Both the position numbers and the translations under genes were made by a program. 64,000 nt of DNA from a virus. The first letter of the stretch is position 1. Each line of letters opens with the position of its first letter. The notes under the pieces are model-generated. The model worked only from the letters and a program-made list of their open reading frames with translations. It made no database searches and was not told where the DNA came from. The DNA is taken from the IMG/VR virus record IMGVR_UViG_2974645756_000001, positions 58,062-122,061 of that record; one strand, written 5' to 3'. Below are positions 49,094-60,853 of the stretch, in pieces.

Positions 49094-49367
49094 AGACCAC
49101 ATTAAACAACATGGTTTTGAATCAGCACTAAAGGCATATAATGAAGATGAACTATTAGAACTTTTAAAGAAATCAGTATATGATTTAAATCTAACATTAC
49201 ATGAGGTTAATAATAGAGGTATGTTTGTTACAGTAGCACAAACCACACAACATTCAGAAAGTCCTAAATACCGACACGATATAACAGAAATTAGAAATAT
49301 TAAATTAGTATCACTTGATAAAAATTTATACAGAAAATCACCACTAAACAAATCAAATGAAAAATAA
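49080..49367 (+). CDS. hypothetical protein
   Basis: start moved to ATG 49080. Confidence 0.55.
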   Translation: MILSEDHIKQHGFESALKAYNEDELLELLKKSVYDLNLTLHEVNNRGMFVTVAQTTQHSESPKYRHDITEIRNIKLVSLDKNLYRKSPLNKSNEK

Positions 49368-49809
49368 TAAATTAAAACATTTTACGGATGCTGTAACAGC
49401 ATTCCACACAGCATTTAACGCACCAGTATCACACGAACCAACATTAATTACAAAAGACCGTTCGGATTTACGTTTTGAATTAATGCGTGAAGAGAATCAA
49501 GAATATGCGGATGCGGTAAAGGATGGTAATTTAATTGAAGTTGGTGATGCCCTTGGTGATATGTTATACATTCTTTGTGGTACTATTATCGAACATGGAA
49601 TGCAACATAAAATTACTGAGGTGTTTGATGAGATACAAGCATCTAATATGTCTAAGTTGGGTGAGGATGGTAAACCAATCTTACGAGAAGATGGTAAGAT
49701 TTTAAAGGGTAAGAATTACTTTAAACCAAACATTGCACAATTCTTTGAGAGTATATATGTAAAGGAACTTAGATATTTATTAGATGGTAGGATTGCAGAT
49801 AACAAATAA
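49357..49809 (+). CDS. MazG-superfamily NTP pyrophosphohydrolase (PRA-PH-like)
   Basis: LMREENQEY, DALGDMLY, SNMSKL, REDGKILKG. Confidence 0.88.
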   Translation: MKNNKLKHFTDAVTAFHTAFNAPVSHEPTLITKDRSDLRFELMREENQEYADAVKDGNLIEVGDALGDMLYILCGTIIEHGMQHKITEVFDEIQASNMSKLGEDGKPILREDGKILKGKNYFKPNIAQFFESIYVKELRYLLDGRIADNK

Positions 49810-51448: not shown

Positions 51449-52040
51449 ATACACCGAGGTTAGATTATTCTTTGAAATACCTACAGAATTTAATAAGGTA
51501 GAAACCCATCGTGTTTTATTAAAACTAAATGTAGTTTTAGAATCTAATTCGGATGCAGATAACCACCTTTCTGATATAAATAAAAAATGGATTATTGATG
51601 AGTTAAATTTCTATGATGGTATAAATAATTGGGATGTTTATTCAACAAAGGTTGTTGATGGTCACCTAGAGGAAGAAAGTGCCTCATTTATCATACGCAA
51701 GACCAAAAAACAGATGTTAGCAGAGAAGTTATTAGCAGAGAAGAGAAAAGAACATTCTACTGTATTAAAAACCAAGCCTAATTTTGATGGTGAGTATGTT
51801 ATATTTGGTTCATATAAGTATGATTTATACACTTTATCATATCTTTGGGGTCGATATACTAGAAACGAAAAATATAACGATAATGGGTTGTATTTGGGTA
51901 AGCGTGATCGAACAGAAGTTATTGAAGAACCAAAACTAACTGCTGGTATATTTATATTCTGTTATGATGGGTATAGATACGAAGTTAAAATAAATAGATA
52001 TATTGCACATTCGGTATATAAAGTCGAAGAGCAATATTAA
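51438..52040 (+). CDS. hypothetical protein
   Basis: start moved to ATG 51438. Confidence 0.6.
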   Translation: MTSKYTEVRLFFEIPTEFNKVETHRVLLKLNVVLESNSDADNHLSDINKKWIIDELNFYDGINNWDVYSTKVVDGHLEEESASFIIRKTKKQMLAEKLLAEKRKEHSTVLKTKPNFDGEYVIFGSYKYDLYTLSYLWGRYTRNEKYNDNGLYLGKRDRTEVIEEPKLTAGIFIFCYDGYRYEVKINRYIAHSVYKVEEQY

Positions 52041-52049
52041 AAATAATTT

Positions 52050-52127
52050 AAAAAGCATTTGGAATATCCAAATGCTTTTTGTATTTTGTATAGTAAATGT
52101 GAAACATTAACTATGGTGAAAGCCATC
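52050..52127 (+). promoter_or_regulatory. stem-loop + promoter + two-hairpin leader cassette
   Basis: AAAAAGCATTTGGA-ATA-TCCAAATGCTTTTT, a TATTTTG promoter-like element, AATGT-GAA-ACATT and ATGGT-GAAA-GCCAT; the stem-loop/promoter part recurs at 52882..52920 and 59426..59470. Confidence 0.7.
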
Positions 52128-52146: not shown

Positions 52147-52875
52147 ATGTTAAATATAGGTTTTTCTAATAAGTATTTTACCCTGTGGGATGTTTGTGAA
52201 TCAACCGAATATAATTCTAATGGGTTACCATATAAAACTACAAGTTATATGTATATCCAAAACTTATCCATTGATAAAGATTCTGCTTTAAATAAAGCAT
52301 ATAATTTAGGATGTAAATCTAAAATTGTTGACTATTCATTAAAGGGTACTAAGGGATGGATTACAAAAGAAAAATTATATTCAGATATACCAAAACATTT
52401 AGCACCATTTTTTATGTTTGGTAAATACTGTGATGAGAATATTTTTGATTGTACAGACTACAAGTATTTATATTGGTACTATTCGGAAACTAATAACATT
52501 CCAGCTAAAAAAGTTCTATTGAATAATGGATATTTTGAACATAATGGGGATTTATTATCTGAATCTGAATATAATAAAATCAATAAACTAAATAAAATTA
52601 TATCAAATATTGGTGATACTATCATAATAACGTGTGATAGAAATTTAAAAGTTGATGATGATTATAACGCATATGGATATTTTGAAGTATCAGATGATAT
52701 AAAATTACCATTTTACTTTAATGATTTCAAAGTATATGATTATCGTGGTATTGAGTATGCATTACCAACAATAAACGGTGCTGGAAAGAGGATAAAAAAC
52801 AAACAATTAGAAATTAAAGTATCGGAAGTAACTTCTGATGTTGATATAATTGTTGAATCATTTAAAATATTTTAA
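52147..52875 (+). CDS. hypothetical protein
   Basis: 242 aa; FGKY..E.I....D..YL.W motif. Confidence 0.65.
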   Translation: MLNIGFSNKYFTLWDVCESTEYNSNGLPYKTTSYMYIQNLSIDKDSALNKAYNLGCKSKIVDYSLKGTKGWITKEKLYSDIPKHLAPFFMFGKYCDENIFDCTDYKYLYWYYSETNNIPAKKVLLNNGYFEHNGDLLSESEYNKINKLNKIISNIGDTIIITCDRNLKVDDDYNAYGYFEVSDDIKLPFYFNDFKVYDYRGIEYALPTINGAGKRIKNKQLEIKVSEVTSDVDIIVESFKIF

Positions 52876-52946
52876 GAAATAATTTGGATATTCCAAATAC
52901 TTTTTGTATTTTTGTATAGTAATAATTAAACAATAAATAAAATCTT

Positions 52947-53738
52947 ATGAATACGTACAATTACTTAAAAGATATGCCTATTTCAGAGGTGTATAATCGA
53001 GTGGCTAAAATTGATTTTAGCCACTTCACAAAACAATGTTCAAATAGACCAAAAGAACTTGGATACACTAGTGTAAACGAGTATAACGATGAACTTAAAT
53101 ACTTGGTTAAATTGTCTTGGTGTCTAGTTTATGAAGCACTAGGGCTACCATGGGGTAACAACATCAATATTAAATCACATGGCAGATTTGGTGACACAAA
53201 TTTCAAAACACGAATAGAACCATCTGTAAGTGGTGAGTTAGTTAATGTTGCTGTAGTTGATTATTATTTGATGAACTTATATTCAATGTTATTAATTAAT
53301 GCATATGGTATTGAGTATGGTATACCACATTTTGGTGAAGTTTATGAGTTGATGGTTAAATTACGTAAATATTCTAAAAAGATTGAATATTTAGGTGAAA
53401 CTGGCAGAAACTTAACATATGATTTGAAGTGTTTAATTAACGCATCATATCTATACATCACACATCATAAATTTCAAATTGAAAGGTATGGTAAAACAAC
53501 AAATAACATATTTAACGACTTATATAATGAGGTTATTGGTGATGTTTTGAAGAAATATAAGAATGATGTTTTGATAATGGATATTGACCATATTGTTTTA
53601 GTTAATGGTAGTGAGGGTCATATGAAGTTAAAGCAGATTATAAAGGATAACAAAATAAAGTATCGTAAGAAAGTTTATAGAGCGTTCGAATATATTGTAT
53701 ACAATAAAATAGATAGGTTTAATAACAAAAAGAAATAA
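52947..53738 (+). CDS. miniature family-B DNA polymerase-like protein (palm/fingers only)
   Basis: EP..G...NVAVVD...LY (motif A), LRK..KK, LKCLINASY (motif B), DIDH (motif C-like); no exonuclease domain. Confidence 0.55.
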   Translation: MNTYNYLKDMPISEVYNRVAKIDFSHFTKQCSNRPKELGYTSVNEYNDELKYLVKLSWCLVYEALGLPWGNNINIKSHGRFGDTNFKTRIEPSVSGELVNVAVVDYYLMNLYSMLLINAYGIEYGIPHFGEVYELMVKLRKYSKKIEYLGETGRNLTYDLKCLINASYLYITHHKFQIERYGKTTNNIFNDLYNEVIGDVLKKYKNDVLIMDIDHIVLVNGSEGHMKLKQIIKDNKIKYRKKVYRAFEYIVYNKIDRFNNKKK

Positions 53739-56346: not shown

Positions 56347-56371
56347 ATTAGTTTTATATTTGCATATAATT

Positions 56372-56722
56372 ATGAAAGAAATGAAAACTATTTGTCATAA
56401 AGCAGAGTTAGAGTGGGGTGATGTATACACATTCGTTGAGGTTAACGGAACAGCATCAGCTAGAGCATATACATTTAAGGATGGTGATGATGCAATATAT
56501 CTAGAAGCATTATATGTTAATGATTCCGTTAGGCGAAATGGTTATGGTAAGAAGTTACAAGAACTTCGAGAGGAACTTGGAAGAACCTTAGATAAAAGTA
56601 AAAGTATCTTATGGGTTGTTAAGGGAACATGGCAGGAGGAATGGTATAAGCGAAGAGGTTATACATTACTTGCAGAGCGTGTTGAAGATTCCAATACAAT
56701 TTGGATGAGTAAGAAAATATAA
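56372..56722 (+). CDS. GNAT-family acetyltransferase
   Basis: LEALYVNDSVRRNGYGKKL acetyl-CoA motif A; WYKRRGY; promoter at 56355..56362. Confidence 0.85.
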   Translation: MKEMKTICHKAELEWGDVYTFVEVNGTASARAYTFKDGDDAIYLEALYVNDSVRRNGYGKKLQELREELGRTLDKSKSILWVVKGTWQEEWYKRRGYTLLAERVEDSNTIWMSKKI

Positions 56723-59315: not shown

Positions 59316-59489
59316 GTTGTTCAATACGAAGTTTTGGACATTTATCGGAAGATAATAAAACCATAAAAGATTGTCATATTATATCGGTTGATTTATTACC
59401 AATATCTGAATTATAAAATAATTAAAAAAAGCATTTGGATAATTCAAATGCTTTTTGTAGTTTTGTCTAGTAATTAAAATAGATTAAAA

Positions 59490-59740: not shown

Positions 59741-60853
59741 ATGAATATACAAGAAGTATTAAATAAGTCTCTTGAAGAGCGTAAAGAAATTTTCAACAAT
59801 GCTAAAGTAGCATATTATGAAACAGACTCACCAATAATGTCTGATTCTGATTATGATTTGTTAGAAGAGTCTATCATTACAGATTCACATGATGATATGT
59901 TTATTGGTGTTAATTCAAGACACAATAAAGCCGAACACAGAAATAAAATGTTATCATTAAAAAAGCATAACATTAATATTGATGGGTCTGATACAGATTC
60001 TGTATTACTTGAAGCATTCAATAAATTGGGTGGTGGTAGATACACATTAGGTTTATCAATGAAGTATGATGGATTGGCTGTTGATGTAGATTTTGAAAAC
60101 CGAACACTAAAACAAATTGCAACTCGTGGTGATGGTAGTATGGGAGTTAATAGAACAAATAAACTAAGACATATTATTGATAACGACCCATCTTGGCAAA
60201 TGTTATTTGATAAGTTTGTTACAGGTAATGTTCGTTGTGAGTGTATAGTTGATTACCCAACATTTGAAGAACATTATATAGATAGTGGTAAGAAACATCC
60301 ACGTAATGTAGCAAGTGGATTAGTTGGTGATGAGAATCTTGAAGCTGGTGTAGGTCATTTAAGATTGGTTGCGTTAGAGGGTATTGATTCTAGTGGCTTA
60401 ATTATCACATCAAGAACATTAGACATGTATTTGACTGATGTTAGAAATGAAATTAACAATATTGAAACATATGAAGACCTAAAACAAGTGTTCCAATCAT
60501 TTAAAGAACGTAGACAGGACTTCATAGAACCAACAGATGGTTTAGTACTTTCAAAGTCATCAACCAATATGGAATTTAAACATGATGGTAAGTATCCTGA
60601 ACATGCATTGTGTATTAAGTTCAGTTCACCAAACTTTAAAGCTACTGTTACTGATATTGAATGGAATTTACAAAAGACAGGTAGATATGTACCTAAGGTA
60701 TATTTCACACCAATTACCGTTGATGGTAGAGATATTGTAAAGGCTAGTGGACACAACCTAGATTGGTTAGTTAGAAATAACATCAAGGTTGGTAAAGAAA
60801 TTACTATACAATTATCAGGTGACATCATACCATATATTTTGACAGATGTATAA
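59741..60853 (+). CDS. ligA: NAD-dependent DNA ligase, short form (Ia + adenylation + OB)
   Basis: YY...PIMSDSDYD, MLSL, KYDG, TRGDG, HPRNVASG, DGLVL, ASGHN, SGDIIP. Confidence 0.9.
   Translation: MNIQEVLNKSLEERKEIFNNAKVAYYETDSPIMSDSDYDLLEESIITDSHDDMFIGVNSRHNKAEHRNKMLSLKKHNINIDGSDTDSVLLEAFNKLGGGRYTLGLSMKYDGLAVDVDFENRTLKQIATRGDGSMGVNRTNKLRHIIDNDPSWQMLFDKFVTGNVRCECIVDYPTFEEHYIDSGKKHPRNVASGLVGDENLEAGVGHLRLVALEGIDSSGLIITSRTLDMYLTDVRNEINNIETYEDLKQVFQSFKERRQDFIEPTDGLVLSKSSTNMEFKHDGKYPEHALCIKFSSPNFKATVTDIEWNLQKTGRYVPKVYFTPITVDGRDIVKASGHNLDWLVRNNIKVGKEITIQLSGDIIPYILTDV

Follow-up and report, generated by a model that had tools for sequence, protein, structure and literature searches.

Family-B DNA polymerases (PolBs) that have been characterised are, to our knowledge, about 570 residues long or more, as in phi29, and always carry a thumb. 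Could an open reading frame (ORF) of 263 codons encode a protein of this family? The question is raised by a gene, denoted as the mini-PolB gene, in a 64,000-nucleotide stretch of viral DNA, which we call the window: bases 58062-122061 of the 224,680-bp IMG/VR virus record IMGVR_UViG_2974645756_000001, rated as complete by CheckV. The host phage of the gene is a marine jumbo phage with a full DNA polymerase besides. An original prediction, made from the letters of the window alone, had read the product as a miniature PolB and had offered half of a split polymerase, a template-independent or protein-priming nucleotidyltransferase and an inactive decoy as possible forms of it. We consider PolB ancestry of the mini-PolB protein, as a palm and fingers without exonuclease, N-terminal domain or thumb, to be very probable (roughly 0.85). 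This reading is supported by structure searches, by a weak PolB match with congruent motifs, by profile links and by residue conservation. The ORF is uninterrupted and real, and its best match in BFVD is a 263-residue protein of Tenacibaculum phage PTm5 with 94% identity, an ortholog.

Motifs and conserved residues

Every motif that had been named was found in the ORF. The motif A block reads R89-x-E91-P92 ... V101-A-V-V-D105 ... L111-Y112. The fingers contribute E134 ... L139-R140 ... K144-K145, with R140-x3-K144 on their first helix, and motif B, L160-K161-x3-N165-x2-Y168, is on the second fingers helix. Motif C, V208-L-I-M-D212-I-D214-H, keeps both Asp residues (D212 and D214), and DID is placed at a hairpin turn predicted by AlphaFold 2 (AF2). 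While the motif A block is present as proposed, its acid is not in the canonical PolB register: D105 and Y112 are seven residues apart, and the corresponding residues of PolBs five. The proposal of no exonuclease domain and little thumb agrees with the chain, which has about 100 residues before motif A and 49 after motif C. No match to an exonuclease profile was found in the protein with Pfam scans, and 88 residues precede the palm. The chain ends 19 residues past Y244, and the thumb is absent.

In sequence searches, the mini-PolB protein appears to be nearly an orphan. An exhaustive phmmer search of 1.84 billion representatives returned the protein itself and one relative, denoted as P0002, a metagenomic protein of 243 residues (E 4e-8, 25-27% identity). 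Considering that the motifs were picked from one sequence and that P0002 was found later, P0002 is a fair test of them. In the alignment of the two proteins (A1), where about 23% of the columns are invariant, E91, P92, Y112, R140, K144, K161, N165, Y168, D212 and D214 are all invariant, and by this comparison the named motifs exceed chance. Word-index protein searches with the mini-PolB protein, P0002 and A1 gave self matches only. Neither megablast nor tblastn against 50,697 phage records gave a match at E 0.01 or better, and P0002 likewise had none in the phage records. No related locus came up when viral, metagenome and genome contigs were scanned with a degenerate pattern based on A1, and the phage's own genome contains no paralog of the gene.

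When tblastn was run permissively (E up to 10) against 2.3 Gb of phage DNA, the top match was the C-terminal PolB domain of Rhodococcus phage ReqiPepy6 gp072. Residues 100-231 of the mini-PolB protein aligned with residues 975-1105 of gp072 at a database-wide E of 0.2 and about 28% identity over 132 residues. The motifs are in register, NVAVVD pairing with NVAVLD in motif A and LKCLINASY with LKIVINIVYG in motif B, and the region before motif A aligned together with motif A to GGYVYAEPG..NVAVLDVASMHPSS of the ReqiPepy6 PolB. The second match was a 266-residue hypothetical protein of Vibrio phage 2.058.O. A match in a fecal contig (E 5) was a helicase and unrelated.

Small proteins of this kind from Vibrio phages (2.058.O, V6Aob, henriette 12B8 and the Ackermannviridae Vibrio phages 144E46.1 and K469) are denoted as Vibrio minis. 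Three of the four that were examined match phrog_7204 ('unknown function') at 3e-6 to 1e-8, and Pfam searches with three of them were blank. YADTDS or YGDTDC is present in two, (L/M/F)-Y-P and K-x-K-x-L in all four, and on sequence grounds we read all four as thumbless PolB palm-fingers proteins. The henriette 12B8 mini is annotated as two overlapping coding sequences (L017 1489-2034 and 1926-2306), possibly with a frameshift. The mini-PolB protein is like phrog_7204 in size (261-305 residues), in having a palm and fingers and no thumb, in acid-x6-Tyr of motif A, and in the invariant R, K, K, D and Y. In contrast, the two have unrelated N-terminal regions, the motif A acid of the Vibrio minis is Glu instead of Asp, their motif C reads KTD, HVD or DTD, and the mini-PolB protein does not match the phrog_7204 profile, the relation being seen by hhalign only (45-59%). 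We place the mini-PolB protein in a loose class of phage proteins of 240-305 residues, with phrog_7204 among its members.

The six mini proteins (the mini-PolB protein, P0002 and the four Vibrio minis) share 189 fully aligned columns, of which only 7 do not vary: Y112, R140, K144, K161, L192, D214 and Y244. A motif scan of Mosigvirus gp43 placed counterparts at 415-416, 482/486, 560, 621-623 and 705-708, and six of the seven columns were therefore equated with functional residues of PolB, namely RB69 Y416, R482, K486, K560, D623 and Y708. In the RB69 ternary complex, we take these residues to act as steric gate (Tyr), as ligands of the triphosphate, as catalytic Asp and as the Tyr of KKRY. D214, invariant in 6/6, aligns with the Asp of KTDS/DTDS, and Y244 aligns with (K/I)RY of the Vibrio minis; T4-type PolBs have KKRY at the corresponding place after motif C. 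An acidic residue is present within the motif A strand of all six proteins. The first Asp of motif C is variable among the relatives (KTD, HVD), and primer-independent PolBs (piPolBs) are highly active though they do not have this Asp (PMC7544198).

The mini-PolB protein has equivalents of RB69 Y416, R482, K486, K560, N564, Y567, D621, D623 and Y708, and in this it is like T4 and RB69 gp43, the phage's own gp43 included. Unlike it, gp43 has N-terminal, exonuclease and thumb domains, its type has fingers 2-3 times longer, and no profile similarity between the two was detected. T4 and RB69 gp43 also bear a clamp-binding tail. With regard to the KTD and HVD relatives, piPolB and archaeal PolB2 have a deviant motif C, and show that a PolB can work with the second motif C Asp only (PMC7544198). 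Both are full-size proteins with all domains, and no specific similarity to the mini-PolB protein was found.

The decoy that had been proposed is disfavoured, since conservation is highest in the columns that bind dNTP and metals, and none of the evidence gathered supports protein priming. A wider alternative is a PolB-derived palm and fingers that no longer polymerises and acts as a sensor of dNTPs or 3' ends, as a subunit (for example of the RlaP-like nucleotidyltransferase encoded next to it), or as a decoy for polymerase-sensing defences. In its favour are the absence of thumb, exonuclease and N-terminal domain, and the motif A acid, which stands two residues out of place, has become Glu in the Vibrio relatives and in P0002 is not conserved by column. 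Inactivated PolB relics are also well known, and herpes UL8-type proteins are among the Foldseek matches described below. However, the invariant columns are almost exactly the triphosphate, steric-gate, metal and primer-contact residues, an acid is kept within the motif A strand of 6/6 proteins, and dead PolBs (the B2 group) are substituted in just these active-site motifs (PMC7544198). We therefore regard a loss of polymerisation as somewhat unlikely, though as the most serious competitor of an active enzyme.

Profile and structure comparisons

The PolB of ReqiPepy6 belongs to a P35/ReqiPepy6/P087 type (phrog_1252 and phrog_4210), which includes Listeria phage P35 gp33 and ReqiPepy6 gp072, a primase-polymerase fusion of 1294 residues. 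The pre-motif A EP, the NVAV(V/L)D strand, R-x3-K, K-x3-N-x2-Y and the motif C Asp of the mini-PolB protein align with those of P35-type PolBs, and its fingers R-x3-K and motif B fall on R-x3-K and KIVINIVYG. In the spacing of its motifs, too, the protein is nearest to these short-fingered PolBs, with 46-64 residues between A and B in the minis and 62-69 in P35-type PolBs, and 50-52 and 54 between B and C, respectively. It is unlike that of T4-type PolBs, where the distances are 108-186 and 61. P35-type PolBs have 635-1294 residues, of which about 300 precede motif A and about 200 follow motif C, whereas the mini-PolB protein has 88 unrelated residues in front of the palm and 49 behind motif C; a thumb in P35-type PolBs is presumed by us from PolB architecture. 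The identity between the two is significant only through profiles.

Profiles were compared locally with hhalign, using the mini-PolB protein with P0002 (mini-T) and the Vibrio-phage minis (mini-V). Mini-T matched mini-V at 59% (P 9e-5, 119 columns), with a range of 45-59% over runs, and mini-V matched P35/ReqiPepy6-type PolBs at 82% (P 1e-5). When mini-V was merged by alignment of hidden Markov models onto mini-T as master, the match to P35/ReqiPepy6-type PolBs was 87% (P 3.9e-6) over 132 columns, residues 92-237. Controls with reversed profiles gave 0.1-0.3% and P of 0.19-0.64, the value for the merged-profile comparison being 0.64. The P35-type family in turn matched T4-type PolB at 96% (P 8.4e-9). 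A first hhalign run had offered I22-D23-F24-S25 as an alternative motif A. This was ruled out, as later alignments and the predicted strand-helix unit give residues 101-113; I22-D23-F24-S25 and W58 are shared with P0002 in the N-terminal region.

With the AlphaFold and Foldseek check that had been proposed, most of the structural neighbours of the protein were PolBs, though on low-confidence models. In the AF2 model from two sequences, the strand that holds D105 (103-109) is followed by helices 111-120, 129-148, 156-172 and 185-203, and then by hairpin 208-211/215-219, helix 223-234 and strand 238-244. In a polymerase palm that has its fingers inserted behind the first strand, the elements come in the same order as in this prediction. 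When the AF2 model was searched with Foldseek against 350,542 PDB chains, about 45 of the top 50 matches were DNA polymerases, mostly PolB, at E 0.03-0.4. The matches included Pol alpha, Pyrobaculum, KOD, Tgo, Sso B1, E. coli Pol II, some family A enzymes and herpes simplex virus helicase-primase complexes. Against BFVD, Foldseek gave many viral PolB entries and an unnamed 266-residue protein at E 1.6e-4. The ESM Atlas model (predicted template-modelling score, pTM, 0.64) had PF00136 clusters as its nearest structures (TM by query 0.54-0.60 over 199-222 residues), and the nearest Pfam-bearing clusters of P0002 in ESM Atlas were PF00136 and PF03175.

Several results weigh against PolB ancestry or against an active enzyme. 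Pfam scans at E up to 10 gave no PolB match for the mini-PolB protein or P0002, and PF00136 and PF03175, when run over the genome, left the mini-PolB ORF untouched. PHROGs gave no match for the mini-PolB protein (E up to 0.1) or P0002 (E up to 0.01), and sequence and profile searches of the PDB were blank for both. Compared directly, mini-T matched P35/ReqiPepy6-type PolBs over the same region at 5.5% only (P 0.007), and mini-T (A1) against five T4-type PolBs was null (0.2%, P 0.28). The homology claim is thus a chain, and its weakest link is the moderate one from mini-T to mini-V (45-59%). The AF2 models are poor, with predicted local distance difference (pLDDT) scores of 38 from the single sequence and 40 with A1, and no single structural score is decisive because of this; taken one by one, the Foldseek E-values (0.03 or above) and VIA Z values (below 6) are insignificant. 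With respect to activity, the lack of a thumb leaves no obvious hold on the primer-template. The off-register motif A acid is Glu in the four Vibrio minis, with the same seven-residue spacing, and in P0002 it lies two columns away, in a canonical D-x4-Y with Val in the D105 column. A shifted or replaced acid could mean altered or lost chemistry. Furthermore, no partner or context is common to the different mini lineages, and flanking genes are kept only within each lineage.

If the resemblance had no basis in descent, the protein would be a fast-evolving orphan that mimics a palm by chance or convergence, for example through another RRM-like or ferredoxin-like fold. The missing curated profile match and the low confidence of the AF2 models fit such a protein, as does a wide PDB structure comparison of the AF2 model, in which only a generic helical hairpin (124-183) was matched. 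Against it, two predictors, ESMFold (Atlas) and AF2, both point to PolBs, the weak match that ranks first in all phage DNA falls on a PolB and has its motifs in register, and the profile chain, whose relatives bear a textbook YADTDS, stands well above the reversed controls. An origin outside PolB is, in our judgement, improbable.

Replicative polymerase, promoter and possible role

The original prediction had considered the ORF as half of a split polymerase and had proposed a search of the genome for a full-length gp43. A T4-type PolB was found with PF00136 at genome positions 165174-171501, outside the window, in three pieces that together cover positions 89-834 of 856 of phrog_262. The first piece (497 residues) contains the exonuclease and motif A and matches PF03104 and PF10108; in the second (275 residues), an intein N-half is joined to the stretch with the fingers, motif B and DTDS; and the third (326 residues) contains the intein C-half, the remaining palm and the thumb. 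An unknown 279-residue ORF and a homing-endonuclease gene lie between the first and second pieces, and a 347-residue ORF (phrog_22677) between the second and third. The split intein sits exactly after the motif C DTDS (locus L003 2175-8502). With its split intein and free-standing endonuclease, the layout resembles what we take to be a 'fractured gene'. The three pieces bring motifs A, B, C and KKKY of their own and add up to a complete PolB from which nothing is missing. The mini-PolB protein is therefore not a missing half, and this form of the proposal is rejected.

A related possibility is that the mini-PolB protein is a piece of gp43 or belongs to the 'minimal split Pol III alpha', a Pol-beta-type catalytic fold divided between two distant genes in group 2.2 jumbo phages. 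The fragmentation of the phage's own PolB speaks for it, and Iyer et al. 2021 placed PTm1 in the group with a split mini Pol III alpha (PMC7824862); in the same work, the group 2.2 jumbo phages, PTm1 among them, are T4-like in their replication and use a PolB for it (PMC7824862). But the three pieces cover phrog_262 with motifs A, B, C and KKKY of their own, the mini-PolB protein has motifs A, B and C on a single chain, and it is nearer to P35-type than to T4-type PolBs. Moreover, the fold of Pol III alpha is of Pol-beta type, whereas all structure matches here are palm polymerases. A PF07733 (Pol III alpha) search of this genome gave no match, so that no Pol III alpha pieces could be located for a direct comparison. 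We consider a piece of either replicase to be extremely unlikely.

The early promoter cassette that had been proposed for the gene is supported by a Bacteroidota-type -33/-7 promoter in the 71-bp upstream spacer. It reads TTTG-N20-TATTTTTG (52883-52914), with the -33 TTTG at 52883-52886 and the -7 TATTTTTG at 52907-52914, and fits what we presume to be the primary-sigma consensus of Bacteroidota, TTTG / TAnnTTTG. A hairpin palindrome, TTTGGATATTCCAAA (52883-52897), overlaps the -33 element. The window contains 18 copies of the promoter motif where 3.1 were expected; 17 of them lie on the coding (plus) strand, and 0 of 100 shuffles reached 18. The 17 plus-strand TTTG-N19-21-TAnnTTTG sites are likely to map the host-sigma (early) promoters of this DNA. 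A sigma-70 consensus scan gave 40 sites against 52.6 expected, that consensus being uninformative for this host type. The cassette is repeated 825 bp upstream (52037-52087) with 76% identity. The perfect palindrome, TTTGGA(A/T)AT(A/T)CCAAA, which looks like a terminator hairpin and overlaps the -33 TTTG, is found at 52037-52087, 52862-52912 and 59434-59465.

As had been noted, the ORF stands directly before a gene for an RlaP-like nucleotidyltransferase, with a gap of 2 nt. No promoter motif was found between the two genes, which are probably co-transcribed. The early host-type promoter of the mini-PolB gene and its tight coupling to RlaP may point to work on nucleic-acid ends early in infection.

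Based on these comparisons, the mini-PolB protein would consist of an RRM-like palm and a fingers hairpin (residues ~89-250) behind a lineage-specific N-terminal region of 88 residues. R140, K144 and K161 would grip the triphosphate of the incoming dNTP, Y112 would shut out ribonucleotides, the metals would be bound by D214 together with D105, the acid of motif A, and the RKKVY244 strand would touch the primer end. Without a thumb, such an enzyme would be distributive or would require a partner. The gene would be transcribed together with that of the RlaP-like nucleotidyltransferase from the host-type (early) promoter, inside a block of nucleotide-metabolism and DNA-processing genes. Considering this promoter, the RlaP pairing and the block, we propose an accessory role, which may be short-patch synthesis or extension and repair of 3' ends on nucleic acids, and not that of a replicase. 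Retained chemistry is favoured because the residues that are kept are those that bind dNTP, metals and the primer end; even so, for an accessory, distributive or partner-dependent enzyme with retained nucleotidyl-transfer chemistry we judge the chances to be evenly balanced. More speculatively, and in our view doubtful, the 240-305-residue palm-fingers PolB cores may form a widespread, unrecognised class of active, thumbless phage enzymes, much smaller than any characterised PolB. Here the mini-PolB protein might act as one module with RlaP, the two enzymes together restoring or lengthening damaged nucleic-acid 3' ends early in infection, for example after attack by host nucleases.

If active, a core of 263 residues with a full dNTP and two-metal site would show the minimum that the chemistry needs, or a new use of the site. 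If inactive, it would still illustrate cleanly how the active site of a polymerase can be turned to binding or regulation. The mini-PolB protein is a candidate for an unusually small accessory polymerase of which we found no published description: the literature gave no account of a PolB palm-fingers protein of 240-300 residues, and a 2024 survey of phage polymerases describes shrunken variants of PolA only. If true, the reading would give a function to 'unknown' phage genes such as phrog_7204 and the PTm1/PTm5 gene, and would mean that T4-like jumbo phages have, besides the replicase, a second polymerase that is not replicative. A polymerase scaffold this small may also interest enzyme engineers.

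Coordinates and neighbouring genes

G+C makes up about 29% of the window, and almost every gene lies on the plus strand. The coordinates of the gene, its predicted parts and its neighbours are collected below. The alternative start of the mini-PolB gene, M10, was chosen by the public gene call and agrees better with the N-terminus of P0002.

Table. Features of the mini-PolB gene and its surroundings (window positions; for the Vibrio-phage minis, positions in their own loci)
Feature	Position	Strand	Basis
Mini-PolB gene, 263 aa (or 254 aa from M10, 52974)	52947..53738	+	ORF, public gene call, PTm5 ortholog
N-terminal region, aa 1-88, lineage-specific, mostly helical	52947..53210	+	outside every PolB alignment
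Pre-motif A and motif A, aa 89-114	53211..53288	+	PolB alignment; AF2 strand 103-109 and helix 111-120
Predicted fingers helical hairpin, aa 129-172	53331..53462	+	conservation in six minis; AF2 helices 129-148, 156-172
Predicted motif C beta hairpin, aa 208-219 (V-L-I-M-D212-I-D214-H-I-V-L-V)	53568..53603	+	AF2 strands 208-211, 215-219
KKRY-like putative primer-contact motif, aa 238-244 (K-Y-R-K-K-V-Y244), last palm strand	53658..53678	+	Y244 invariant 6/6; AF2 strand 238-244
Intergenic cassette, hairpin palindrome overlapping promoter	52862..52914	+	sequence reading, motif count, repeat
RlaP-like Pol-beta-superfamily nucleotidyltransferase, 372 aa	53741..54859	+	PF10127 E 4.4e-17, phrog_388 E 2e-43
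MazG-like pyrophosphohydrolase	49357-49809		
GNAT	56360-56722		
NAD-dependent DNA ligase	59741-60853		
Four Vibrio-phage minis	L015:2752-3552, L018:1516-2301, L019:1246-2142, L020:1255-2172		

Between the MazG-like gene and the mini-PolB gene are a weak dNMP-kinase-like ORF and unknown ORFs. The surroundings of the phrog_7204 minis are alike in containing nucleotide-metabolism genes. However, the Vibrio minis have either thymidylate synthase or thymidine kinase on one side and peptide deformylase on the other, or stand next to GroEL, and RlaP is not their neighbour. Just upstream of the Vibrio minis, a gene of 150-160 residues is kept (V6Aob_087, L018:956-1438), the product of which ends in G-x-G...S-D-L-E-I. 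Its weak likeness to the RlaP nucleotidyltransferase motif G-S...D-I-D-I (52 C-terminal residues, pairwise E 5e-5) is probably a matter of chance, considering that the stretch of 52 residues is short and that Pfam gave no support.

Synteny was also followed by way of RlaP. The RlaP-like protein has its closest relatives, with 41% identity, in the uncultured huge phages LR745206 and LR756502 (635-642 kb), where topoisomerase subunit or tail-fibre-like genes, and no mini-PolB, lie upstream. Since the mini lineages share no partner and RlaP homologs of other phages have no mini-PolB upstream, the RlaP pairing is specific to this lineage. An RtcB-type RNA ligase of 398 residues is encoded at genome positions 149286-150353, about 38 kb from the RlaP-like gene, and the phage therefore has at least two RNA-repair components, which are not adjacent. 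Remoter relatives of the RlaP-like protein are found in Lak megaphages, Ackermannviridae and other large myoviruses, and the gene is widespread in large phages.

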